Assembly: GCA_902606075.1 (NCBI GenBank)
Contig: CACLEU010000001.1
Span: forward strand, 16,356-80,355
Reading direction: 5' to 3'
Origin: an uncultured Pelagibacteraceae bacterium
GTDB taxonomy: Bacteria > Pseudomonadota > Alphaproteobacteria > Pelagibacterales > Pelagibacteraceae
Length of the DNA: 64,000 nt
Part shown: positions 22,302 to 36,172 of the stretch, piece after piece
Layout: every line of letters starts with the position of its first letter
Position numbering within the stretch: the first letter of the stretch is position 1
The notes under the pieces: model-generated
Told to the model about the DNA's origin: nothing
Seen by the model: only the letters and a program-made list of their open reading frames with translations
Database searches by the model: none
Translations under genes and position numbers: made by a program

Positions 22302-22377
22302 GCCCTTGTAGCTCAGCTGGTAGAGCAATTGATTTGTAATCAATAGGTCCGCGGTTCGAATCCGTGCGGGGGCACCA
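22302..22377 (+). tRNA. tRNA-Thr(TGT)
   Basis: GCCCTTGTAGCTCAGCTGGTAGAGCAATTGATTTGTAATCAATAGGTCCGCGGTTCGAATCCGTGCGGGGGCACCA. Confidence 0.97.
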
Positions 22378-22440
22378 TCACTTAATAAAATCAACACTAA
22401 TTATTTTTGTAGAGTTATAGTTTAGTTTAATTTTGTAATC

Positions 22441-22471
22441 GATTGTGCCAGGATTGTGCCAGGATTGTGCC
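22441..22471 (+). repeat. Tandem GATTGTGCCAG x2.8 (putative integrase arm-type sites)
   Basis: GATTGTGCCAG GATTGTGCCAG GATTGTGCC read directly. Confidence 0.85.
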
Positions 22472-22487
22472 GTGATCAAGTAGTCAT

Positions 22488-23033
22488 TTAATCATAATAA
22501 ATGTACTTTAATATTCTATTTGCACTATTTGAACACGGAGATTTAAAACAACCTTCAAAAATTATTCTTGAGTTTTTATTTTCAAAACACGAAATTAAAA
22601 AACCTAAATTGGTATCGCTTGATGCGTCTTCATTACATCCTGCAGATGAGTCGTTCGTATAAAGATTTCTATCAAATTGATGAAACAGATTCTTTGTTGG
22701 TTGTCCATTTCCATAAGTATTATTTAAACCATAAAAGTTAGATATAATTCCACTTACTCTATTAAAATCACTTGAGTTGCCAGCTAATAAAACTTCACAA
22801 GTAGTTTTATCCCAAAGTGCTCTAGCAGTAGAGTTTATTTCACATAAAGCTTTCTCTGAAACCCAAGCTTTATAAATCATTTCAAAATTAGCTCTGCTAG
22901 TAGAAGATTTTGCAGCAGTTGTGTATCCACTATAAGCAACAGTTCCTACAGCAGCAAGGATACCGATGATTGCTACAACGACTAGAAGTTCTATTAATGT
23001 GAAACCCTTGCTATTGAATTTTATTTTTGACAC
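22488..23033 (-). CDS. Type IV pilin-like protein
   Basis: Prepilin motif KG|FTLIELLVVVAIIGILAAVG with Glu5; variable Cys-rich C-terminal region. Confidence 0.9.
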   Translation of the reverse strand: MSKIKFNSKGFTLIELLVVVAIIGILAAVGTVAYSGYTTAAKSSTSRANFEMIYKAWVSEKALCEINSTARALWDKTTCEVLLAGNSSDFNRVSGIISNFYGLNNTYGNGQPTKNLFHQFDRNLYTNDSSAGCNEDASSDTNLGFLISCFENKNSRIIFEGCFKSPCSNSANRILKYIYYD

Positions 23034-23368
23034 TGTAATTTACAAAAAACATTGAGGTCTTTCATAGTTAATCCGCCTCTAATACTTTGTTTGCATAAAT
23101 TTAAACATTCATAATCAATTCCATCTTTTACAAATGTATCTTTTAATGATTTATTATTTTTTGTATTAGTATCAGATCCAAAAACCTTATCTAATAAGTT
23201 TTTAGATTTATTTATAAACCCCTTGTTATTTATCTCATATTCGCTCTGCAAACACAGAACAAAGTCTCTCTTGTTCTCTTCATAATTAAAAATTTTATTG
23301 CAAGTTTCTGCATTAGATTTACCAGCCAACAACAAACCCAGAACCACGATCCCTAAAAGTTTTTTCAT
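23021..23368 (-). CDS. Hypothetical secreted protein with six Cys
   Basis: Signal peptide MKKLLGIVVLGLLLAGKSNA; ECLNLC..FCKLQC. Confidence 0.7.
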   Translation of the reverse strand: MKKLLGIVVLGLLLAGKSNAETCNKIFNYEENKRDFVLCLQSEYEINNKGFINKSKNLLDKVFGSDTNTKNNKSLKDTFVKDGIDYECLNLCKQSIRGGLTMKDLNVFCKLQCQK

Positions 23369-23683
23369 TTAATGATTTGTATAAGCATCCGGATAGTTAG
23401 TTAAATGTTCATCTGAAATTGGTATCATTACAGCACTTTCTACAACAGCACCTGCTTCTCTTCTTTTCTCGGCAAGTTCCTTATCATCTTTAAAAGCTTG
23501 GAGTGCTTCCATATTTGGAAATTGCATTACTGTATGAAGTTTTGTCGGGTCATCTTTTTGTGTGCCTGCAAAAACAAATTTTATTCCATGCTCTTTTAAT
23601 TTTCCATCCTGTGCATAGACCATCTCTTTCCATGTTTTAAATCCTTTAGTAATTGTAATTTCACCTTTTACTAATATTGCCAT
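23369..23683 (-). CDS. Small dimeric alpha-beta barrel protein (DUF3764-like)
   Basis: FKTW..GIK..GTQKDDPTK..MQFPNMEAL..RREAGA pattern; strong SD (AAGGAG) upstream. Confidence 0.6.
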   Translation of the reverse strand: MAILVKGEITITKGFKTWKEMVYAQDGKLKEHGIKFVFAGTQKDDPTKLHTVMQFPNMEALQAFKDDKELAEKRREAGAVVESAVMIPISDEHLTNYPDAYTNH

Positions 23684-23736
23684 ATGAATCTCCTTATTTA
23701 ATTTTTAAAATTATTTAATTATTAAAACCCTACCAC

Positions 23737-23754
23737 TGTGCCAGGATTGTGACC
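23737..23754 (+). repeat. TGTGCCAGGAT-TGTGACC, second copy of the Thr-element repeat
   Basis: Same unit and orientation as 22441-22471; 53 bp before the tRNA fragment. Confidence 0.8.
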
Positions 23755-23807
23755 ATACCAAATATATTTTAAAAATATTGTTGCAAACAAATGTTTATTT
23801 AAACTTT

Positions 23808-23850
23808 AGCAATTGATTTGTAATCAATAGGTCCGCAGTTCGAGTCCATG
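23808..23850 (+). pseudogene. Partial tRNA-Thr copy (att-like)
   Basis: AGCAATTGATTTGTAATCAATAGGTCCGC 29-bp exact match, then degenerate T-arm; no acceptor stem or CCA. Confidence 0.9.
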
Positions 23851-23869
23851 AGGTCACAATAATAAAAAT

Positions 23870-26022: not shown

Positions 26023-26991
26023 TTAAATATATTTACGATCTTTAACTAATTTCAATTTTTTTTCCACACAAGAATAAAACAAACATCCAAAACTAACACT
26101 TAAAATTAAACAGATTATTGATAAAAATGTATTATTAATTTCTACATTTAAAAACGTAACTACTTTATAGAAACCAGGAATTGTTAACATTTGTAAAAGA
26201 TATATGCTATATGAAGCGTCACCTAAATATAAAAAAAACTTATTTTTAATCTGTTTACTGTATATTGCGCCAATAACAATCAATGTAGCAGGCAATCCCC
26301 AAATTATGAATCTATCATAATTAATTATTTTACCGTTTGTATTAATTGACATAATTAAAGTCAAAATTCCCACGGTTAAAATTATATGTCCAAGATGATG
26401 ATTAACTTTTCTAAATTTAACATATAAATATCCCGTGATTACACCTAAAAAAAATTCTAAAAAATACAATTTATAACTAACTAAAAAAATAAGTAACATC
26501 ATGAAAAAAATTGCAACAACAATTCTATTTAATGTTTTGAAATATAAAGCTATACCAAAAATTAAATAAAACAACATTTCCCACTCTAATGTCCATCCCA
26601 AATTGATTATCGGATTAGAATTATTCAATAATTGAGAAATGAACAAAAAAGATGAAACAGAACTTTTAACATCTACTAAAAGGGATCTAAATATACCAGG
26701 AAAAAGTAAGTATATAATTATAATAAAACTGGTTATTAACCAGTACACTGGAACAATTCTTAAAATTCTTGATTTATAAAATTTAAAAATTGTTTTTGGA
26801 TTGATAGCTTGAGTGTAAATCATAACAAACCCTGAGATTACAAAAAAAATATCAACACCATTTGCTCCCCAATCTCCTACAATAGGAAATATAATAGTTG
26901 GTTTTCCATAGCTTTCACCTCCTATCAAAACATGCAAGTAAACCACGTTAATTGCAGCAAAAGCTCTAAGAAGCTGAAGGTTATTTATCAT
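26023..26991 (-). CDS. Membrane O-acyltransferase (acyltransferase-3/OafA family)
   Basis: LQLLRAFAA..H, GVDIFFVISGF, RILRIVPVYW, WTLEWEMLFY, GDASYSIYL. Confidence 0.9.
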   Translation of the reverse strand: MINNLQLLRAFAAINVVYLHVLIGGESYGKPTIIFPIVGDWGANGVDIFFVISGFVMIYTQAINPKTIFKFYKSRILRIVPVYWLITSFIIIIYLLFPGIFRSLLVDVKSSVSSFLFISQLLNNSNPIINLGWTLEWEMLFYLIFGIALYFKTLNRIVVAIFFMMLLIFLVSYKLYFLEFFLGVITGYLYVKFRKVNHHLGHIILTVGILTLIMSINTNGKIINYDRFIIWGLPATLIVIGAIYSKQIKNKFFLYLGDASYSIYLLQMLTIPGFYKVVTFLNVEINNTFLSIICLILSVSFGCLFYSCVEKKLKLVKDRKYI

Positions 26992-26996
26992 CGAAG

Positions 26997-27082
26997 TGGT
27001 GCCCTCGGCCAGACTCGAACTGGCACTCCATAAATGGCAAGGATTTTAAGTCCTTTGTGTCTACCAATTTCACCACGAGGGC
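26997..27082 (-). tRNA. tRNA-Leu(TAA)
   Basis: GCCCTCGTGGTGAAATTGGTAGACACAAAGGACTTAAAATCCTT, variable arm, GTTCGAGTC, GGGCACCA; 86 nt. Confidence 0.97.
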
Positions 27083-27166
27083 ATTAATGAATTTCATGAG
27101 TATTTATGCTAATATTTATAATTCAACAAGTGTAATAAGTAAAATTTTTTTTATTTATCTCTTTAG

Positions 27167-27184
27167 GTACAAGTCTAGTACAAG
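27167..27184 (+). repeat. GTACAAG-N4-GTACAAG putative arm-site pair
   Basis: GTACAAGTCTAGTACAAG; related pairs at 29376/29387, 29434/29445, 29702/29713 and 31092/31103. Confidence 0.75.
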
Positions 27185-27222
27185 TTTTCCCATATTATCC
27201 TATAGAGTTTTAATTAAATTTA

Positions 27223-29352
27223 TTAAAATGTTCTTGCAACTTCTATGGTTGCACCATAATCAGGTATTTCTTTCATCAAGCTATAATTTGAGCTCATTCT
27301 GATATCAAAACCATTTAAATCTCTCTTATAACTTAAAGATGCATTGTCATTATCTAAACTCATAGCATATTCGATATCGTCAGTTGGTATATAACCAAAA
27401 CCTAAATATAAAGTATCGCTATGAGCATTATCACTTTGATTTCTTTCATAGATAGTCATTACAGAAAAACCGTTTTCAGTAATTAAATCAAATCCAATGT
27501 TTGCTCTTATATTCTTTGAGTCTTGATCAATAGATTTAGTATATTCTGTAGTTTCAGAAAGATAACGATATTTGGCATCTGAAGATGGGCTAAAATCTAA
27601 ACCAATCTCTAAACCTCCATGTGGTTTAAATGTCATAGTGTTTAAATTAATAATATCGCTTACTGTAAAACCGGTGGATATCATTCCTGTTTCAATTATT
27701 TGTTTATTGTACACCAATGCAGTAGTTCCTTTTTCTCTATATTTGGATAGTTCTGTATAGCTAAGATCAATTCTTAAATTAGGTACAATATTAAAGTTTT
27801 CTTTTTTATATGTTTTTAAATAATTAATTGATCCGAATACTTGTGCTCCGTCTCTTTCTCCAGTTCTAGTATATAAATCACCTTTTCTAACATGATCAGT
27901 CTTCAAAGTACTAATTCCAAGAATACCCTCAGTAAATCTTTTATCATCATGAAGAAAAGTTCCATAAAGAGATAAACTATAAGAATCAGTATCTAAAGAT
28001 GTCCCAGATGTACCTATATCAACATCATCATTGCCAAATCGAAGAGCATATCCATACATTTTGTTTTCACTAATTTTTTTATCCATTCCAATTGTAATAC
28101 CTTTACTATCAATTTTTTTTGATGATGAAGAAGATGTGTCACCTACTCTACCAACACTAACGCTACCTTCGCTCCAAAATGACCAATTATCAGATATTTT
28201 ATCTAAAATATCATTTGTTTTGTTAGATACTGGAATAACTTTTGAAAGAGATGCCATCATTGAATTTGAAAAGTTAAATTTAATATTTTGATTACTTAAT
28301 TTATCTTCATTTCTATAACGTCTTAACCAATACATACGATTAAGAACTGGAGTGCTTGCTTGAATAGCAATTTGTTTAGCTGTTGCTGTTTGAGATTCAA
28401 TTGAACTTGAAATATCTTTACCTTCATCACTTGTATCAGCCGGATCATCACAAGCACCATCAACTACACTCCAATTACAGCTTAGATTAAATTCAAAAAC
28501 TTTATTATTGGTATTACCAATGAAAAACATTTTACTTCCATCATGACTAAACGCAACTTCTCTTGCATCAGTATCATGAGAATTTACATTATAGGTACCT
28601 TCAAGGGAGTAAGTAGAAACATCATAAGGTGTAGTTAATTTAAACTGAGAAACCTGATTGGTTGTATTATCAATGGTATACATTTTAGTACCATCGTGAT
28701 TAAAAGTAACTCCATCTAAGTAAGTGTGAAAAGAACTTAAGTCTTCAGTATTAAGATGTGTAACTCCTGAGCTAAGATCAAATGCTGTATCTAGTGAATA
28801 TTCATTAAGGTGATGTTGAGTATTATTTCCTACACCAGCAATAATCATTCTGGTACCATCATTATTAAATGCAACGGAAGTTAATCTTACTTCTTTACTA
28901 GAAACATCATATCTACCCTCAAGTGAAGCAGTTGAAACATCAAATGCAGTGGTTAGTGACCAGTAATCTATATTATTAGAACCATGGTCAGCAATAAACA
29001 TTTTTGTTCCATCGTTATTAAACACTACTTGGTTTGGTATAAGTGTATCACCACCTCCATGAGTTGCTACTACATGTACTGTTTTAGTATTGTTTAAGGT
29101 TGCTGTTGAAATATCATAAGCAGTAGTTAATACATATTCGTAAACATTATCAGCTTGTAGGCCACCACCATTCTTATCATATTGTGTAGTATACATTTTG
29201 GTACCATCATTATTAAATGTTAATCCAAATTCTCCGTTGTCTGCATTTATTGATTTACTTCGTACAAAGGTTGGCTCCGCTATAGCTTTAGAAAGAAATA
29301 AAGCTAAAAAAAATACAATATAATGAATTTTAAAAAATTTTTTTACAACCAT
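27223..29352 (-). CDS. Autotransporter-like outer membrane protein with five ~50-aa beta-propeller-type repeats
   Basis: Signal peptide; 5 repeats FNNDGTKM..Y.LTTA(F/Y)DVSTA; C-terminal beta barrel starting WSFWSEG, terminal Phe. Confidence 0.82.
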   Translation of the reverse strand: MVVKKFFKIHYIVFFLALFLSKAIAEPTFVRSKSINADNGEFGLTFNNDGTKMYTTQYDKNGGGLQADNVYEYVLTTAYDISTATLNNTKTVHVVATHGGGDTLIPNQVVFNNDGTKMFIADHGSNNIDYWSLTTAFDVSTASLEGRYDVSSKEVRLTSVAFNNDGTRMIIAGVGNNTQHHLNEYSLDTAFDLSSGVTHLNTEDLSSFHTYLDGVTFNHDGTKMYTIDNTTNQVSQFKLTTPYDVSTYSLEGTYNVNSHDTDAREVAFSHDGSKMFFIGNTNNKVFEFNLSCNWSVVDGACDDPADTSDEGKDISSSIESQTATAKQIAIQASTPVLNRMYWLRRYRNEDKLSNQNIKFNFSNSMMASLSKVIPVSNKTNDILDKISDNWSFWSEGSVSVGRVGDTSSSSSKKIDSKGITIGMDKKISENKMYGYALRFGNDDVDIGTSGTSLDTDSYSLSLYGTFLHDDKRFTEGILGISTLKTDHVRKGDLYTRTGERDGAQVFGSINYLKTYKKENFNIVPNLRIDLSYTELSKYREKGTTALVYNKQIIETGMISTGFTVSDIINLNTMTFKPHGGLEIGLDFSPSSDAKYRYLSETTEYTKSIDQDSKNIRANIGFDLITENGFSVMTIYERNQSDNAHSDTLYLGFGYIPTDDIEYAMSLDNDNASLSYKRDLNGFDIRMSSNYSLMKEIPDYGATIEVARTF

Positions 29353-29433
29353 TGATGTATTATAAACTTATTAAAGTTCAGGTTTAGTGTAAGACTACCC
29401 AGAATGGGTTATGGCTTTATTTTATCCCTTTAA

Positions 29434-29460
29434 GTACAAGTTCAGTACAAGTCTGTTCAA
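29434..29460 (+). repeat. GTACAAG x2 plus degenerate third copy
   Basis: GTACAAGTTCA GTACAAGTCT GTTCAA. Confidence 0.75.
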
Positions 29461-29530
29461 ATTAATTAAGTTTTATTTTCTAATCTTAATAGAAAGCTAA
29501 ATTAAAGTTATGTGATTTTATAGGAGGTTT

Positions 29531-29560
29531 TAGACTGTCTTGGACTACTATGGACTGACT
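29531..29560 (+). repeat. 10-bp-period T(A/G)GACT repeats
   Basis: TAGACTGTCT TGGACTACTA TGGACTGACT. Confidence 0.7.
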
Positions 29561-29579
29561 TTAACTTCTATCCCTCGGC

Positions 29580-29618
29580 TTTTAAGTCCTTTGTGTCTAC
29601 CAATTTCACCACGAGGGC
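29580..29618 (-). pseudogene. 5' half of tRNA-Leu (att-like); its upstream region is also duplicated to ~29720
   Basis: Identical to 27044-27082; ends at the anticodon loop; no T-arm or CCA. Confidence 0.92.
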
Positions 29619-29754
29619 ATTAATGAATTTCATGAGTGTTTATGCTAATATTTATAATTCAACAAGAGGAATAAGTAAAATTTTTTATTTTATCTCTCTA
29701 TGTACGAGGTATGTACGAGAGATCCTATATAATCCCTCATAAAATCATAAATAA

Positions 29755-31071
29755 TTAATTTAATAAATATTTATTTACGTTTTCCTTAAATATTTTTAAA
29801 GTTTTTTCGTAAGCAACTTGATTTTTTTTATTAAGTGATGATCCGTATCCCCAACAAATTTTCATTGAGTGATCATAAAGTTTCTTGTCTCCTTTATTAC
29901 CAAACCATCCACCATTAGCTGAAATATTAAACCATTTACTTTTATCTTTAGGTCTTACCCAAATCTGTCCATTATTATCAGTATATACTCTGCATTCAGA
30001 ACTTATCTTTATTCCATCTTCAAAATTAGATCCTGTCTTATCATAAAAATGGGTTGTGTTTTTGAAAACAATAATTTGTTTGTTTGTTTTCTTTAGATCT
30101 TTTTGAGTCACAATATATTCTTCACAAAGATTATGTGGTAGATAATCCTTATCGCCCATTAGTATCAATAATGGAGCATCTGTAGTTTTAGTATTCTCAT
30201 AATGATAACAGAAGGGATATAATGCGAGATGTAATTTAAAATTATTTTTTGGTTTGATGACATCTAAATTAAAATAATTTTGAGTTTCAATTGCAACAGT
30301 TCCTCCCCAACTCCACCCCATTATACCAATTTTAGTCGAGTCAACGCTTTTGTTTTTAGATAATATATCTAAAGCTCTTAACGAATCTAAAGCTCCTACA
30401 TGAGGAGATATCCATGATATTTTTTTTGATCTATCATAAAAGTTTTTATCGTAACCTCTTGATTTAAATATAAATGGTTCAAATGTGGCAATACACATGT
30501 CATGCAATATATGTTTGTAATCAGTCATAATTCTTCCACCTGAATGGTGAATCAAAAACATAACCGGATATTTTTTTATACCTTTACATTTTTTTTGGAC
30601 AGGAAATATAAGGTTACCAAAGCCTTTAATCTTTTTATTATCTTCAAGTCCATCAAATATATCATCTTGTATAAAGATATCATTTGTATTAAATTTTATT
30701 TTTTTAACTTTGCTTTTCGCTTTTTTGCAATCTGTAATGACATCTTCAATTTTCTTGTTACCATATTTTTTATTAATTGAATTTTTGTGGTAGTGAGTGC
30801 TTTTGACTGGAAATGCATCATTGTGAGTAGCGTACCAACGCCAATCATTTTTTTTTCCTTTTCTTAAATGAACACTTAATAATTCTCCTTTTGATAAAGG
30901 GATTGTGATTGAAGCCCACATTCCATTATCCTTAACCCATTCGCTGGTTATTCTAACATTTTGGTTTACTTTACAAACTTCCAATATTTCATTTTTTAAC
31001 CATTTAAATGGAACAGCGTAAGAATTGGTAGAAAATATACTAAAAATTAAAAGATAATATAAAATTTTCAT
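29755..31071 (-). CDS. Secreted alpha/beta hydrolase (dienelactone hydrolase-like) with N-terminal extra domain
   Basis: Signal peptide, HHSGG, KIGIMGWSWGG nucleophile elbow, ALYPFC, LILMGDKD, TTHFYD. Confidence 0.8.
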   Translation of the reverse strand: MKILYYLLIFSIFSTNSYAVPFKWLKNEILEVCKVNQNVRITSEWVKDNGMWASITIPLSKGELLSVHLRKGKKNDWRWYATHNDAFPVKSTHYHKNSINKKYGNKKIEDVITDCKKAKSKVKKIKFNTNDIFIQDDIFDGLEDNKKIKGFGNLIFPVQKKCKGIKKYPVMFLIHHSGGRIMTDYKHILHDMCIATFEPFIFKSRGYDKNFYDRSKKISWISPHVGALDSLRALDILSKNKSVDSTKIGIMGWSWGGTVAIETQNYFNLDVIKPKNNFKLHLALYPFCYHYENTKTTDAPLLILMGDKDYLPHNLCEEYIVTQKDLKKTNKQIIVFKNTTHFYDKTGSNFEDGIKISSECRVYTDNNGQIWVRPKDKSKWFNISANGGWFGNKGDKKLYDHSMKICWGYGSSLNKKNQVAYEKTLKIFKENVNKYLLN

Positions 31072-31179
31072 ATTTAATTTTATACTTTTCTGTGTGAGAC
31101 TTGTACGAGAATCTTAGAAATCATTAAACAAAGAATGATTAATTTTATTATTTTGATCATTATTCTAGTTTTCTATAAT

Positions 31180-33867
31180 TTATCCGGTATTTTTTATTGC
31201 TGCTGATATACCTGCTATGCTAGTCATTAAGGCATCATTTAAATTATTGTTATTTATTTTATTATTGTTTTTTTTGGTTAATTTCATCATTACTGTGGCT
31301 TGTAATATGTTTAAAACTTCAGAATATACATTTCTTATAATTGCGGGACCTCTAAATGCTTTTCTTTGTTTTAAAATTTCAGATGGTGTAATATTGTGGT
31401 TAAGTTTTTTTAAGGCTTCAAATTGGAATCTAAGTTTTTTTCCAACTCTTTTTAAGTCAATATCTGCTAAATTATCTTCATAAATTTTTGAAATCTCCGG
31501 ATCAACTTTTGATATAACCATGTCCAATAAGTCCATTGTAGAATTAAAAAAAGGCCAGTTTTTTTCCATATCGATTAATGTTTTTTTAAATTTTTTTATT
31601 GATGAATATCTTAATGCTTCAGCAGTTCCTAACCATGCCGGTAACATAAGTCTTATTTGAGTCCAAGCAAACACCCAGGGTATTGCTCTAAGACCTTTAA
31701 TATTATCTAAATTTTTTCTTTTAGATGGACGAGAACCGATAGATAATTTCCCTAACGCTAAATGAGGAGTAACTGTTTTAAAGTATCGGATAAATTCTGT
31801 ACTTGATGTTAAATTTTTTCTATAAGAACTTTTAGATATATCAGACATGCTTTCTATCAAATTTCTCCAATTTTCTTTTGGTTGTGGAGGAGGCATTAAA
31901 GTAGCTAACATCACAGAACTTATGTAACTACATAAATTATATTTAGCTATAGGCTCATAACCGTATTTTTGTTGTATCACTTCACCTTGATCGGTAATTC
32001 TTATTTTTCCATTAACTGAACCAGGCGGTTGAGATCTAAGAGTAGCCTGTATTGGTCCGCCTCCCCTTCCAGCTGAACCACCTCTTCCATGGAAAAAAGA
32101 TAATTTTACTTTAAATTTTTTTGATGACGCTAAAATTTCTTCTTGTAATTTATATTGGTGCCACCCTGCACATAGTTTACCTGCGTCTTTACTAGAATCT
32201 GAATAACCAATCATGATTTCTTGTTCATTATTAATCAAATTTCGGTACCAACCTAATTTAAATAAAGTAGACATGATATCGCTTCCACTTATCAAATCAT
32301 CTAAGGTTTCAAACAAAGGTACTACTCTTAATTTATCTTTAATGTTTGCTTCTTTTTGTAAAAGGATTACTGAGAGAATATCAGAAGCTGAGGATGTCAT
32401 AGATATAATATAAGCTCCTAAGCATTCTTTTGGTTGACTTGCTAAAGCTTTAAAAGTTGACCAAACTTCTAAATTTTCTCTATCTTTGAATTGAAAACTA
32501 TTAATAAAATTTTTACCCCTTATTCTTTTAGTCAAAAACTTTATCTTTTCTAGCTCAGTCCAAGAATAATAGTTCTTCTTGAATTTTCTTTTTATTATCT
32601 CAGCAATAAGTTTCGTATGCCGGGATGACTCTTGTCTAATGTCTAATCTAGCAAGATTAATACCAAAGCATTTTGCTCTTCTCATTAAGTCTAATAGTTC
32701 TCCACTTGCAATGTTTTGATTTTGTGACTGTTCCAAAGACTCTCTAACAACTCTCAATGGTTTTAAAATATCTTCCTTTGAGGAAATAAGTTCTTTTTGA
32801 TTTAGAGGTTTTTTTTGAACCAAATGTCGTTCTATCATCCTATGAGTTCTTCTCATTCTATCTCTTAGCGGTCTCAGATAAACTCTATAAGGTTCATATG
32901 AGTGACCTGTATATTTTAATATTTTTTTGGAACATTTTTGCATCGAAAAGGATCTAATTAATTTTGTTAAAGATTTTTCATAAAGTTTTGCAGCTTCCCA
33001 TCTCGATAAAAGCAAAACCTCCTCAGTAACCTTAGACGTTACGAAAGGATTTCCATCTCTGTCACCACCCATCCATGAACCAAATTCAATAGGATTAAAA
33101 TTTTTTGGTAAATTTTTTTTCATATTTTTTACAAATATTTCATTAAGTCTTCTGTAAACTTTTGGAATAGTGTCCCATAAACTATCCTCTATTATTGCTA
33201 ATCCCCATCTAGCTTCATCAAATGGAGATGGTTTATATCTTTTAAGTTCATCTGTGTTCCAGATTATTGTTATTTCATCAAACATTTTTTTGTCTAATAC
33301 TTTTATTTTTGAAGGATATTTCTGGAGTAAATTTCTTTGTTCCAATATTTCAGTTAATGCATGATATTTTTGAATTAAGGTTCTTCTCTTGACCTCTGTT
33401 GGATGAGCAGTTAAAACAATACCGATATTAAGTCTTTTTGCTAAATCATAAATTGTTTTATTTGAAATATTCTTATTTTTAAAAAAACTCTCAAATATTT
33501 CTTCAATAAATATATTTTTATTTTTTTTTCTTTTCACGGAATTTTCGTATTGGTCTAGAGTTCTAGAAGCATCCACAGACTCTGCCAAATTATACAAATT
33601 CATAAAATGATTGTATGCTCTAGTTAGTTTGAGTAGATCTTTAGGATTTTGTTTTTTAATTTCTCTAGACAAATTTGCGAATGGGGTTTTTTTATTTTTA
33701 TTTGCGGTATTAGCTTTTGATAAAAGCCTTGTTTTTTCAACTAGTTTAAAAAAATTAATTCCTTCTTGTTCTTTTATAACTTTTCCTAAAATATTTCCTA
33801 AATACCTAACATCATTTCTTAAACTTTTAGTGGGGATTCTCTCATAATAAAGATCTCTTTTTATCAT
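31180..33867 (-). CDS. ppc: Phosphoenolpyruvate carboxylase
   Basis: VLTAHPT, SWMGGDRDGNP, MIGYSDSSKDAG, FHGRGG, LRAIPW, C-terminal KNTG. Confidence 0.97.
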   Translation of the reverse strand: MIKRDLYYERIPTKSLRNDVRYLGNILGKVIKEQEGINFFKLVEKTRLLSKANTANKNKKTPFANLSREIKKQNPKDLLKLTRAYNHFMNLYNLAESVDASRTLDQYENSVKRKKNKNIFIEEIFESFFKNKNISNKTIYDLAKRLNIGIVLTAHPTEVKRRTLIQKYHALTEILEQRNLLQKYPSKIKVLDKKMFDEITIIWNTDELKRYKPSPFDEARWGLAIIEDSLWDTIPKVYRRLNEIFVKNMKKNLPKNFNPIEFGSWMGGDRDGNPFVTSKVTEEVLLLSRWEAAKLYEKSLTKLIRSFSMQKCSKKILKYTGHSYEPYRVYLRPLRDRMRRTHRMIERHLVQKKPLNQKELISSKEDILKPLRVVRESLEQSQNQNIASGELLDLMRRAKCFGINLARLDIRQESSRHTKLIAEIIKRKFKKNYYSWTELEKIKFLTKRIRGKNFINSFQFKDRENLEVWSTFKALASQPKECLGAYIISMTSSASDILSVILLQKEANIKDKLRVVPLFETLDDLISGSDIMSTLFKLGWYRNLINNEQEIMIGYSDSSKDAGKLCAGWHQYKLQEEILASSKKFKVKLSFFHGRGGSAGRGGGPIQATLRSQPPGSVNGKIRITDQGEVIQQKYGYEPIAKYNLCSYISSVMLATLMPPPQPKENWRNLIESMSDISKSSYRKNLTSSTEFIRYFKTVTPHLALGKLSIGSRPSKRKNLDNIKGLRAIPWVFAWTQIRLMLPAWLGTAEALRYSSIKKFKKTLIDMEKNWPFFNSTMDLLDMVISKVDPEISKIYEDNLADIDLKRVGKKLRFQFEALKKLNHNITPSEILKQRKAFRGPAIIRNVYSEVLNILQATVMMKLTKKNNNKINNNNLNDALMTSIAGISAAIKNTG

Positions 33868-33891
33868 TAATAAGTTATTTTCTTAAATTAA

Positions 33892-34617
33892 TTATTTTTC
33901 CCAATCAAATCTTGGAAATGAATTAAATATTTTTAAAATGCCCTCAGACCATTCACCTGAAACTTTTGAAAATTCTTTGTCATTTAAATTCAAGCATTTT
34001 TGAGAAGTAATTTTTAATTCATCTTTTTTATAAACTACAAAATCTATCGGTGGGCCAACTGTTAAGTCACTTTTTAATGTTGAGTCCATTGAAATTAATG
34101 CACATCTCGAAGCATCGCCTATGGACACATCTGGTGTAACAACTCTATCTAATATTGGTTTGCCATATTTAACTTCTCCTATTACTAAATATGGTTTGCT
34201 ATCTGCAGGTTTAATGTAATTGCCTTGGGGATAAACTAAAAACAATTCCATTTCTTGTCCTTTAATTTGCCCACCTACAATAAAAGTTGATCCAAGTAAT
34301 ACAGTATCTGTATTTATACCTTTGGGAGAAGAATGTTTAATATTTAAACCTCCAACATATTTTGCTATTTGGTCGAAATCTTCACATGTATTTAAATTTT
34401 TGATGCCAGTTTTATTCTCCAGATCTTTCTCAATAGATTTATAAACCGCTTGGGAAGTGCCAAGATTTCCTGAGGTTACAATTAAAATAGTTCTATCTCC
34501 GACGTCATATGTAAACATTTTTGAGTAAATATTTACATTATCAAAGCCAGCATTAGTTCTTGAGTCTGAAGCTATTATTATTCCCTCTTTAGTTTTAATT
34601 CCTATACAATATGTCAT
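33892..34617 (-). CDS. Anbu proteasome-type Ntn protease
   Basis: Thr nucleophile after Met (MTYCIG), SDSRTNAG, SGNL, LVYPQGN, IGEVKYGKPILDR, SMDSTLKSDLTVGPP. Confidence 0.92.
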   Translation of the reverse strand: MTYCIGIKTKEGIIIASDSRTNAGFDNVNIYSKMFTYDVGDRTILIVTSGNLGTSQAVYKSIEKDLENKTGIKNLNTCEDFDQIAKYVGGLNIKHSSPKGINTDTVLLGSTFIVGGQIKGQEMELFLVYPQGNYIKPADSKPYLVIGEVKYGKPILDRVVTPDVSIGDASRCALISMDSTLKSDLTVGPPIDFVVYKKDELKITSQKCLNLNDKEFSKVSGEWSEGILKIFNSFPRFDWEK

Positions 34618-34661
34618 TCATTTATGTATTATTTAATTAAGCATGCTATTTATAATCGATT

Positions 34662-34679
34662 TATATCATATCTGATATA
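34662..34679. promoter_or_regulatory. Inverted repeat TATATCA-N4-TGATATA in divergent promoter region
   Basis: Perfect 7-bp arms near the middle of the 109-bp spacer. Confidence 0.4.
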
Positions 34680-34726
34680 TCTAAAATGCATTTGCATAAT
34701 ACGTTTAACTAATAAAAGCTATCAAA

Positions 34727-36172
34727 ATGGTTACTAAGTTGTGGAAAAACTATAATGCTAAATATGCATACGATGGATATTTTACCGAGGATAATAAGCT
34801 ACGAAAACATGCTATGATAATTTCTAATATCCTTGAGAAATATGGGAAAAAAAAATTACAAGAAATTGAAAAAAATTGTCAAAGTACTATAAGTGCTAGA
34901 GGTATTAACTTTAGGGTTTATGCGGCAAACAATAGAGCAGAAGAAAAAAAATGGCCCTTAGATATAATACCAAGAATTATTCCAAGAACTCAATGGAACA
35001 AAGTTTCAAAGGGATTACAACAAAGAGTTAAAGCCCTAAATTTATTTATTGATGACGTCTATAATCAAAAAAAGATATTTAAGGATAATATTGTCCCAAA
35101 AGAAATAATATTTAAATCACCCTACTATGTAAAAGAGTGTGAAGGTTTTTCACCAAAATATAAGGCATGGTCAAACATTTCTGGAGTAGATCTTATAAGG
35201 AATAAGGCTGGAGATTATTTAGTTTTAGAAGATAATCTAAGAGTTCCCTCAGGTGTTTCTTACATGCTTGAGAATAGAATGGTTATGAGAGATGTTTTTC
35301 CTGAACTGTTTACTAGGTATAAAGTTGCATCAATTAATCATTATACAAATAAACTTTTCAATTGCATGATCGAATGTATTCCTAAAAAAACTAAAGATCC
35401 TCATATGGTAGTTTTAACACCAGGAATTTATAATTCCGCATATTTCGAACATTCATATTTAGCTGAACAAATGGGCATTGCCCTGGTAGAGGGAAAAGAT
35501 CTTTTTGTTGAAAATGATATAGTTTACATGAAAACAGTTAAAGGACCTTTGAGAGTTGATTGTATATATAGACGATTAGATGATAGCTTTTTAGATCCTA
35601 AAACATTTAATAAGGAGTCTGTAATTGGTGTACCTGGGTTGTTCAAATGTTGGAGAAAAGGAAATGTTGGTATTTTAAATGCCATAGGAACAGGGGTTGC
35701 AGATGACAAGGTAGTTTATTCTTATGTAAATAAAATGATAGTTTATTACTTAGGTGAACAACCAATTTTAAACCAAGTGGAGACTTATTTGTGTCATGAA
35801 AAAATACAAAGAGATTACGTAATAGAAAACATTTCAAAATTAGTTGTTAAACCTGCAAATGCCTCGGGTGGCTATGGCATTATGATAGGGCCAAAGGCTC
35901 CTGCTAAAGAAAGAGAAGAAGTAATAAATAAAATAAAAAAAAATCCTAGAGAATTTATTGCACAACCGTTAGAAATTTTATCAACAGCACCAACGATTAC
36001 AAAAGACGACATTGAGCCTAGACATCTTGATTTAAGACCTTTTGTTCTAAGTGGAAAAACTTCCTACGTTACAACTGGAGGACTTACAAGAGTAGCTTTA
36101 CGAAAAGGTAGTACAATTGTAAATAGCTCGCAAGGGGGTGGCTCTAAAGATACGTTAATTGTTGATATGTAG
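34727..36172 (+). CDS. Circularly permuted type 2 ATP-grasp protein
   Basis: PLDIIPRII, VLEDNLRVPSGVSYMLENR, LTPGIYNSAYFEH, IYRRLDD, VADDK, VNSSQGGGSKDT. Confidence 0.93.
   Translation: MVTKLWKNYNAKYAYDGYFTEDNKLRKHAMIISNILEKYGKKKLQEIEKNCQSTISARGINFRVYAANNRAEEKKWPLDIIPRIIPRTQWNKVSKGLQQRVKALNLFIDDVYNQKKIFKDNIVPKEIIFKSPYYVKECEGFSPKYKAWSNISGVDLIRNKAGDYLVLEDNLRVPSGVSYMLENRMVMRDVFPELFTRYKVASINHYTNKLFNCMIECIPKKTKDPHMVVLTPGIYNSAYFEHSYLAEQMGIALVEGKDLFVENDIVYMKTVKGPLRVDCIYRRLDDSFLDPKTFNKESVIGVPGLFKCWRKGNVGILNAIGTGVADDKVVYSYVNKMIVYYLGEQPILNQVETYLCHEKIQRDYVIENISKLVVKPANASGGYGIMIGPKAPAKEREEVINKIKKNPREFIAQPLEILSTAPTITKDDIEPRHLDLRPFVLSGKTSYVTTGGLTRVALRKGSTIVNSSQGGGSKDTLIVDM

Follow-up and report, generated by a model that had tools for sequence, protein, structure and literature searches.

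The 64,000-nucleotide stretch analyzed here (the window; GenBank assembly GCA_902606075.1, contig CACLEU010000001.1, positions 16,356 to 80,355 of the forward strand) comes from an uncultured SAR11 bacterium of the Pelagibacteraceae, whose 0.82-Mb assembly is 76% complete. On the 5′ side of its tRNA-Leu(TAA) gene, window positions 27044–31179 are best read as a two-unit array of non-autonomous integrative cassettes. Comparison with relatives, viral contigs and metagenomes makes it likely that such cassettes were inserted, and probably moved, in trans by the integrases (Int) of autonomous elements.

The intact tRNA-Leu(taa) was located by ARAGORN at 26997–27082 on the minus strand. A repeat search of the window revealed a direct repeat of 115 nt (27041–27155 and 29577–29691; 95% identical, spacing 2536 bp), and base-by-base reading showed that the identity of both copies begins at TTTTAAG (27044–27050 and 29580–29586), the sequence just before it differing between the copies (GGA versus GGC). 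On the minus (tRNA) strand TTTTAAG reads CTTAAAA, the anticodon loop of 7 nt. The repeat spans the tRNA 5′ half and ~110 bp upstream of it, and its outer end is marked by a GTACRAG-N4-GTACRAG pair. Duplicated tRNA sequence delimits the element, and the identity stops inside this loop, as expected for anticodon-loop insertion by a tyrosine integrase. The GTACRAG-N4-GTACRAG pattern occurs at 27167–27184, 29434–29451 and 29702–29719 in the 64-kb window, with 0 occurrences expected in 100 shuffles. Two of the pairs lie to the right of a core, starting 123 bp (27167) and 122 bp (29702) from it, and only the pair at 29434 is on the left side of one, at a distance of 146 bp from 29580; a further, degenerate pair, GTGTGAG-N4-GTACGAG, occupies 31092–31109. 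On the minus strand the order is ppc, hydrolase (29755–31071), half tRNA, autotransporter (27223–29352), tRNA-Leu and acyltransferase. The autotransporter unit has GTACAAG pairs at both ends and the hydrolase unit GTACGAG pairs at both ends. The initial annotation, made from the letters of the window, had traced the identity from TTTTAAG through the 5′ half and upstream region to the GTACRAG pairs 123 and 122 bp out and had proposed two cassettes inserted in succession; the observation was confirmed, and the two pair types, one per unit, agree with that proposal. The features of the locus are as follows.

26997–27082, minus strand: intact tRNA-Leu(TAA) (ARAGORN); its 3′ half (26997–27043) is assigned to the chromosome and its 5′ half (27044–27082) to cassette 1, from the repeat boundary at 27044.
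27044–27050, no strand: core or crossover site 1, TTTTAAG, with the anticodon stem AAGGA/TCCTT on either side as putative inverted core sites.
27044–27166, minus strand: right arm of cassette 1, comprising the tRNA 5′ half and a ~84-nt upstream module with an A/T tract, delimited by conservation of the module.
27167–27184, plus strand: putative arm-type site pair of the cassette 1 right arm, GTACAAG-TCTA-GTACAAG, with an 11-bp period and TTTATCTCT before it.
27188–27204, plus strand: TCCCATATTATCCTATA, a second conserved direct repeat, with TCCYAT words at an 11-bp period, present in most right arms of relatives.
27223–29352, minus strand: cargo of cassette 1, a 709-residue autotransporter (PF03797, E = 1.2e-32; beta-domain residues 392–633) with a repeat-rich passenger domain.
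29412–29579, plus strand: left arm of cassette 1, with TTTATCCCTTTAA, then GTACAAG-TTCA-GTACAAG (29434–29451) and ATAGGA (29520–29525).
29531–29556, plus strand: core-side part of the cassette 1 left arm, TAGACT/TGGACT/TGGACT at a 10-bp period, followed by ...ATCCCTCGGC abutting the core.
29580–29586, no strand: core or crossover site 2, TTTTAAG, at the repeat boundary.
29580–29701, minus strand: displaced tRNA 5′ half (29580–29618) plus upstream module, facing the cassette 1 cargo and forming the right arm of cassette 2.
29702–29719, plus strand: putative arm-type site pair of the cassette 2 right arm, GTACGAG-GTAT-GTACGAG (motif search).
29755–31071, minus strand: cargo of cassette 2, a 438-residue alpha/beta hydrolase (dienelactone hydrolase or S9-like; PF00326, PF01738).
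31092–31179, plus strand: degenerate left-arm remnant of cassette 2, GTGTGAG-ACTT-GTACGAG (31092–31109) plus ~70 nt, with the ppc stop codon next at 31180.

The inverse of the TCCYAT repeat, ATAGGA, sits in the left arm, and the remnant of the cassette 2 left arm contains no RGACT words, core or further half tRNA. The autotransporter gene itself holds two internal repeats, D1 and D5, found in the repeat search.

The same anatomy recurs in relatives. The tRNA and upstream module are present at 85–94% identity in 19 of 24 same-genus genomes, 11 of which contain one to three extra partial copies, all starting at query positions 42–49, which correspond to the anticodon loop. Comparison of upstream regions across SAR11 and a count of tandem units, both suggested by the initial annotation, revealed a recurrent array. 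In 20-kb stretches mapped around the tRNA-Leu of relatives, a hypervariable island lies between this tRNA and a conserved gene block and is made of units that run from partial copy to partial copy (27 units of 1.35–15.5 kb, median ~2 kb). Their cargo open reading frames (ORFs) lie predominantly on the tRNA strand (81 versus 22 on the other strand). Every copy starts at TTTTAAG, in the window and in >40 copies from relatives, and this boundary is common to all relatives. In a complete genome of the same genus (G013) and in the searched genomes of the neighboring family, the tRNA is present with unrelated upstream sequence and no array.

The initial annotation had ascribed the upstream region to the element. 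Over 41 copies the upstream module averages 91% identity, while the neighboring nadK of those genomes shows 72–77%; it recurs 2–4 times per array in relatives; and each window copy matches copies of other genomes better than it matches the other window copy. These comparisons support a region that travels with the cassettes. Homologous left arms are found in 75 of 401 genus genomes (19%).

The units share a common layout. In window orientation, the right arm runs from the core TTTTAAG through the tRNA 5′ half, the 84-nt module, 'TTTATCTCTCT..G' and a 7-mer repeated after 11 bp to TCCTATAAAATCCTAT; the cargo is then followed by TCTCT, the same 7-mer pair, a conserved ~126-bp left arm and the next core. 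This left arm contains ATAGGA(T) and three (A/G)GACT words at a 10–11-bp period and ends in ..TGTGAATCCCTCGGC or a variant. The 7-mer pairs start 122–123 bp to the right (a position held in 25 of 33 copies) and 144–147 bp to the left of the core, and are thus putative arm-type sites at a fixed distance on both arms. More than 15 types of 7-mer were found, among them GTACAAG, GTACGAG, GTACTAG, GTACCAG, GTACTGG, GTGCTGG, GTGCAAG, GTCCAAG, GTCCGAG, GTTCTAG, TTTCTAG, GTTCCAG, GCTCCAG, GCTATAG, GCTCTGG and GTAATAG. Cassettes of differing types coexist within one genome in the window and in G241 and G257.

The two ends of a cassette match each other. Twenty cassettes keep both arms at the fixed geometry, and 18 of these share 7-mers between their own ends (mean 8.0 shared), compared with 30% of non-self pairings (mean 1.1). 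This matching bears on the idea that the cassettes are fossils, that is, Int elements or prophages that have decayed by loss of int and replication genes and now form an immobile record of past integrations. Inner units are indeed often truncated in relatives, with inner right arms cut at various positions; window cassette 2 has no core at its left end, and degraded tycheposon remnants have been described in Prochlorococcus (bioRxiv 10.1101/2020.12.28.424599). However, decay accounts poorly for two intact arms with matched 7-mers. Moreover, the scanned cargo proteins include no pieces of int or primase, the cassette-type upstream module is distinct from that of sampled elements, and three complete genomes (G084, G359 and G234) carry different cassettes on the same truncated inner junction. 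We consider it improbable that fossilization explains the arrays. The arrays also show turnover in that the same large cassette occurs in G230 and G409 in differing array contexts.

We scanned IMG/VR with the half tRNA. Four contigs (L117, L131, L135 and L137) show the cassette layout on both sides of the core: to its left, TATCTC and a 7-mer pair, GAGACT x3 and TGTGAATCC; to its right, the half tRNA with their own promoter region, then TTTATCTC together with the 7-mer pair found on the left. The 7,799-bp contig L117 contains a tRNA-half match ~40 bp from each contig end on the same strand and is therefore probably a circle of ~7.7 kb. It encodes a 545-residue protein with a C-terminal tyrosine-recombinase domain (PF00589; phrog_1 at 4e-20), a 781-residue archaeo-eukaryotic primase (AEP)/DUF5906 protein, a RusA-like protein and small ORFs. 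The catalytic domain was detected at residues 365–526 (PF00589, E = 2.5e-7 and 4.9e-5), and in an alignment of 10 sequences R373, K400 and R485 never vary and H508 and Y518 hardly do so, giving the R, K, H, R, Y set of a tyrosine integrase. Three further pattern scans of IMG/VR gave the following matches: the left-arm pattern matched twice, by chance, with no arm or tRNA homology; the GTACAAG pair matched 14 times, mostly in GC-rich and unrelated sequence with no tRNA or arm homology; and the cassette-type upstream module matched one contig, a prophage–host junction with different phage arms.

A profile built from four such integrases identified relatives in 11 of 401 genus genomes. In G203, G148 and G241 a whole element of 7.8–10 kb separates the intact tRNA-Leu from a displaced 5′ half; the element directly adjoins integrase-free cassettes in G241, and element and cassettes also stand side by side in G203. 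Both arms of the G148 element bear GTGCTGG pairs, and the core-proximal stretch of its left arm hardly differs from the corresponding one in the G010 and G004 cassettes. Relatives of this Int were also found on 237 stretches in JGI and ENA metagenomes, many on contigs of 7.3–9.7 kb, and in 50 of 74 metagenome stretches examined the tRNA-Leu(TAA) 5′ half ends ~102 bp upstream of the Int start. The 7-mer types of Int-linked elements include GTACAAG and GTACGAG, both of the window types, and cassette-like left arms lie upstream of the integrase gene in these autonomous elements. Integrase-bearing elements thus carry the same kind of attP as the cassettes, so that the refuting condition named in the initial annotation, absence from any mobile attP, does not hold, and overall its interpretation is supported. 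The same family, at 530–560 residues, also occurs near tRNA-Ser(TGA) in L159 (G380) and near tRNA-Ser(GCT) in L161 (G190), which suggests that it targets several tRNAs. Two IMG/VR contigs, L132 and L134, represent another element family at the same tRNA-Leu core, with GGGCAAC or GGGTAAC pairs on both arms; a 515-residue protein with no Pfam match sits beside the core and may be a further, unrecognized type of recombinase.

The Int N-terminus provides a candidate reader of the 7-mers. In the AlphaFold model, residues 1–25 are predicted to be disordered, and residues 27–125 form a confidently predicted fold (mean pLDDT 81). Foldseek matched this domain best to three PDB entries, 3ju0, 3jtz and 3rmp_C (probability 0.97–1.00, TM by target 0.64–0.78), which cover the arm-type binding domains of two integrases, HAI7 and HPI, and the P4-like attP complex. 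Thus, the Int N-terminus is predicted to fold like a P4-type arm-binding domain. We then compared 38 distinct integrases, taking pairs whose identity outside the arm domain is 93% or more. When both members have the same 7-mer type, their arm domains are 0.88–1.00 identical, versus 0.51–0.78 when the types differ. Because these groups do not overlap, the arm domain and the 7-mer sites appear to be swapped together as a specificity module. An OmpR/PhoB-type regulator box was considered for the 7-mers with their 11-bp period and was ruled out, as the 7-mers vary between cassettes and co-vary with the Int arm domain. In L144 (1501–1580) and equivalent stretches the left-arm 7-mer sites fall within the coding region of the disordered N-terminal tail of Int, so that the tail peptide depends on the type of arm site (QPAQPGKAQ for GTGCTGG, for instance).

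The cassettes themselves encode no such enzyme. Among the cargo proteins are autotransporters, trypsin-like and M16 peptidases, dienelactone hydrolases, a short-chain dehydrogenase/reductase–FAD–UbiA operon, an aldolase/dehydrogenase operon, a major facilitator superfamily transporter, a carbamoyltransferase, acyltransferases, a pilin-like protein and an Mrr-ResIII helicase. Scans of 30 cargo proteins of relatives and of the two in the window returned no recombinase domain, and no PF00589 match fell inside any integrase-free cassette array among 121 genus genomes. An integrase gene inside the element is found only in the 8–10-kb relatives. As a rule, these 121 genomes contain one PF00589 protein of 317–325 residues, encoded tens of kb from the tRNA. 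The additional integrases recovered in this search sit at tRNA-Leu(TAG), tRNA-Leu(GAG) or elsewhere, or in the G096 prophage. The window assembly has a single PF00589 protein (contig C7, 11913–12866) and none near the array; this protein scores 27.5 bits on an integron-integrase model with a cut-off of 265.

The 317–325-residue protein is the sole PF00589 protein in most genus genomes and is far from canonical XerC/XerD, scoring 71 bits on the XerD model against a XerC/XerD cut-off of ~330, so that SAR11 may use a single divergent Xer-type enzyme. Could this host recombinase move the cassettes, as XerCD does with integrative mobile elements exploiting Xer (IMEX) at dif? Its length leaves no room for an extra N-terminal arm-binding domain of ~110 residues, and one specificity cannot serve the several 7-mer types that coexist in one genome. 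The enzyme is also present in G013, which does not have the cassette-type upstream module, and a cognate Int family with matching arm sites exists. We regard a role for the host enzyme as highly improbable.

Phages offer another potential source of enzyme. The pelagiphages HTVC105P and HTVC109P are reported to integrate at tRNA-Leu(TAA) and to complement its 5′ part (Zhao et al., bioRxiv 10.1101/410191). They resemble the cassettes in having the same attB, in the anticodon region, and an attP with the tRNA 5′ half. By contrast, they are 41–42 kb in size, encode their own short integrase, have other arm repeats and share ~45 nt of identity with the window and no upstream module. A distant blastn search of INPHARED with the attP-like region matched only this 45-nt tRNA half, in HTVC105P, HTVC109P and a MedDCM phage, the remaining matches being tRNA-Leu genes of unrelated phages. 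The shared core and 5′ half, together with prophages at the tRNA-Leu(TAA) site in G096 and in an IMG/VR contig, would fit cassettes that are phage-dependent hitchhikers mobilized by such T7-like pelagiphage integrases. However, the phage arm repeats differ (GCGGATAG, TGCAC, ACTACG), there is no homology to the left arm, and the HTVC105P and HTVC109P integrases are ~290–300 residues long. There is, in our view, very little chance that phage integrases of this kind are the cassette enzyme. The G096 prophage (contig C27, L095; L089 6150–7358) is a T7-like pelagiphage inserted in the tRNA-Leu(TAA) anticodon loop, its junction ending in the same loop as the cassettes; it encodes integrase, terminase, capsid and tail proteins, duplicates the tRNA 3′ half and has an arm with TGCAC x3 at an 11-bp period.

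In the mechanism we favor, in which Int acts in trans, a circular cassette would carry an attP of ~290 bp. Its left arm would hold the 7-mer pair, ATAGGA and three RGACT words, followed by the 7-bp core TTTTAAG and a right arm in which a copy of the tRNA 5′ half and its promoter region is joined to the same 7-mer pair. Strand exchange between attP and attB, catalyzed by a tyrosine integrase, would take place inside the anticodon loop. The incoming cassette would give the tRNA a new 5′ half and promoter, and the old ones would be pushed outward, facing the new cargo; the attP would copy the tRNA promoter region because the original promoter is displaced. Repeated rounds would stack cassettes with the newest beside the tRNA, so that the age order would follow from the mechanism. 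The enzyme would be supplied by the ~8–10-kb elements, with their 545-residue P4-like integrase and AEP primase-helicase, provided that their arm specificity matches. The 7-mer pairs would be arm-type sites bound by the Int N-terminal domain, and the 7-mer type would act as a label for which Int variant can move a given cassette. We infer catalysis in trans and present-day mobility from these relationships. The RGACT and TCCTAT words may be excisionase or bending-protein sites.

The displaced promoter and half tRNA (29580–29701) may, in this scheme, drive transcription of the cassette 1 cargo by read-through. Position and conservation point to a promoter in the upstream module. Candidate sigma-70 promoters in the conserved module are TTTACT-17-TATAAA and TTGTTG-17-TAAATA, neither of which passes the stricter rule of the scan tool, and the consensus promoter and terminator scan flagged neither upstream module and returned no terminator. 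Contigs from RNA libraries reach a depth of 2–7 over the cargo and left arm and cannot show transcription.

Several observations weigh against movement in trans by Int. Logan contigs, which cannot show rare forms, revealed neither a circular form of a cassette nor an empty site or excision junction; the cassette is not spanned by any single piece, and other cassettes with shared arms and 7-mer context account for the joints observed. No Int of the 545-residue family is present in the 76%-complete assembly from which the window comes, and the family is found in 11 of 401 genus genomes versus 75 of 401 for the left arms. The cassette-type upstream module differs from that of the Int elements (seen at 2 of 50 Int-linked junctions, host-junction-like); the cassettes are therefore not simple, recent deletion derivatives of the sampled elements. 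At 8 of 26 Int-linked junctions the two sides have unlike 7-mer types, which either chimeric assembly or integration in tandem could explain. Foldseek gave weak E-values (0.045–0.1). Finally, the co-variation of 7-mers and arm domain could be partly due to physical linkage, since the left-arm 7-mers lie within the Int N-terminal coding region. Integrase-free cassettes, which keep both pairs matched across kilobases of unrelated cargo, provide an independent argument for 7-mers as labels.

The scarcity of cognate Int also bears on whether an integrase is needed at all. Cassettes that were once inserted site-specifically could now spread as portable homology, by RecA-dependent recombination between their arms or flanking core genes. 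SAR11 bacteria have very high recombination rates. Right arms (~160 bp) and left arms (~125 bp) are 80–96% identical across strains, and most cassette-bearing genomes show no cognate Int. In seawater metagenome contigs (runs X1 and X5), the summed depth of the arms (26902–27169 and 29448–29715) is, as a rough measure, hundreds of times that of the cargo, consistent with arms that are common to many different cassettes in the population. What such recombination leaves unexplained are the matched 7-mer ends, which differ between cassettes, and the fixed distances of RGACT x3 and ATAGGA/TCCTAT from the core. As a replacement for Int it is thus unlikely, if worth serious consideration. The two explanations are not exclusive, and homologous recombination between shared arms may contribute to the spread of cassettes inserted by Int.

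Elements flanked by the attachment sites of a relative are known as cis-mobilizable elements (CIMEs). CIMEs related to ICESt1 and ICESt3 of Streptococcus thermophilus are islets flanked by att sites of a related element; they have no recombination genes and need a helper integrase. Like these, the cassettes have att sites homologous to those of a related autonomous element (left arm and 7-mer types are common to both) and no recombination genes, and they lie in tandem at a shared site. They differ in that the putative helper is a ~8-kb Int-primase element that is not conjugative, the 5′ half of the tRNA is targeted, a promoter is apparently brought along and there are many arm-site specificities.

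Tycheposons of Prochlorococcus are mobile units that carry an integrase, and integrase-free stretches were treated as remnants (Hackl et al., bioRxiv 10.1101/2020.12.28.424599). Judged by layout and gene content, the two systems share streamlined marine hosts, tRNA integration at island borders, partial tRNAs between successive integrations, a tyrosine recombinase with a primase/helicase module and ecological cargo. The window cassettes contain neither recombinase nor replication genes, and the 8–10-kb relatives have Int and AEP primase/DUF5906. Unlike in tycheposons, the dominant units here are integrase-free yet have complete, specificity-matched arms.

The initial annotation had likened the stacking to an integron, and the likeness holds as a topological analogy only. 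As in integrons, the cassettes are promoter-poor, mostly of single or few genes and co-oriented, and they pile up at a single site, with the latest arrival expected closest to the insertion point; the tyrosine recombinase is not encoded in the cassette, its action in trans being proposed here, and an external promoter would lie upstream of the array. By contrast, there is no IntI with attI and Pc beside the array, and the cassette ends are direct repeats at an 11-bp period in duplex attP-type arms rather than attC hairpins, the window repeat search giving no arm-spanning inverted repeat. The implied recombinase would act in trans and has a predicted P4-type arm-binding domain. P4-like integrases (HPI, HAI7; PDB 3jtz, 3ju0, 3rmp) share with this Int the N-terminal fold, arm-type direct repeats in attP and a tRNA target. 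The Int described here differs in its length of ~545 residues with a long conserved middle region, in that Pfam detects its catalytic domain only, and weakly, and in that its elements replace the 5′ and not the 3′ part of the tRNA.

Stacking at tRNAs and Int-primase elements (tycheposons), 5′-half complementation (pelagiphages) and integrase-free att-flanked elements (CIMEs) are thus already known, and recurring tRNA-end repeats in additive islands have been reported from Methylophilaceae. 'Pelagibacter, resolved' (10.64898/2026.04.03.716430) concerns a different hypervariable region. The literature searched contained no account of integrase-free cassettes with complete, specificity-matched arms in SAR11.

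The cassettes offer a concrete, testable mechanism by which SAR11, the most abundant bacterium of the ocean, may gain and turn over genes at one hot spot, with cargo that spans surface proteins, proteases, transporters, small metabolic operons and a restriction-type helicase. The SAR11 pangenome is open, and the streamlined SAR11 genomes are, to our knowledge, usually described without transposons, plasmids or integrons. The cognate integrases and the arm-site code could be assayed in E. coli, and the matched 7-mer labels provide a natural system for studying how the arm-site specificity of tyrosine integrases evolves. If displaced tRNA promoters drive the cargo, this would explain the expression of promoter-less cargo. 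More tentatively, at somewhat below even chances, SAR11 may have a two-tier exchange system in which a pool of cassettes with at least 15 7-mer labels is served by integrases with swappable arm domains, the tRNA-Leu promoter is renewed at each insertion and the displaced promoter expresses the cargo. If real, this integron-like platform, assembled from tRNA and attP components, would give a lineage that has long been regarded as almost devoid of mobile elements a major route to new genes.

Window positions 31180–36172, which separate the cassettes from the conserved block, hold ppc, an Anbu-type proteasome homolog and a circularly permuted ATP-grasp gene. Among the compared relatives this trio occurs only in G017, and therefore appears to belong to the variable island; in G019 ppc is absent and the order of the other two genes is inverted.

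A second integrase-free cassette is located at tRNA-Thr(TGT) (window 22302–23857) and is of the classical 3′-half type. The intact tRNA (22302–22377) is followed by GATTGTGCCAG x3 at 22441–22472 and by cargo of three small minus-strand ORFs of 181, 115 and 104 residues. At the far end, TGTGCCAGGATTGTGAC (23738–23754) is followed, ~55 bp on, by a partial tRNA-Thr (23809–23857) from the anticodon arm onward. This similar cassette, which also has no integrase, suggests that the principle is general.

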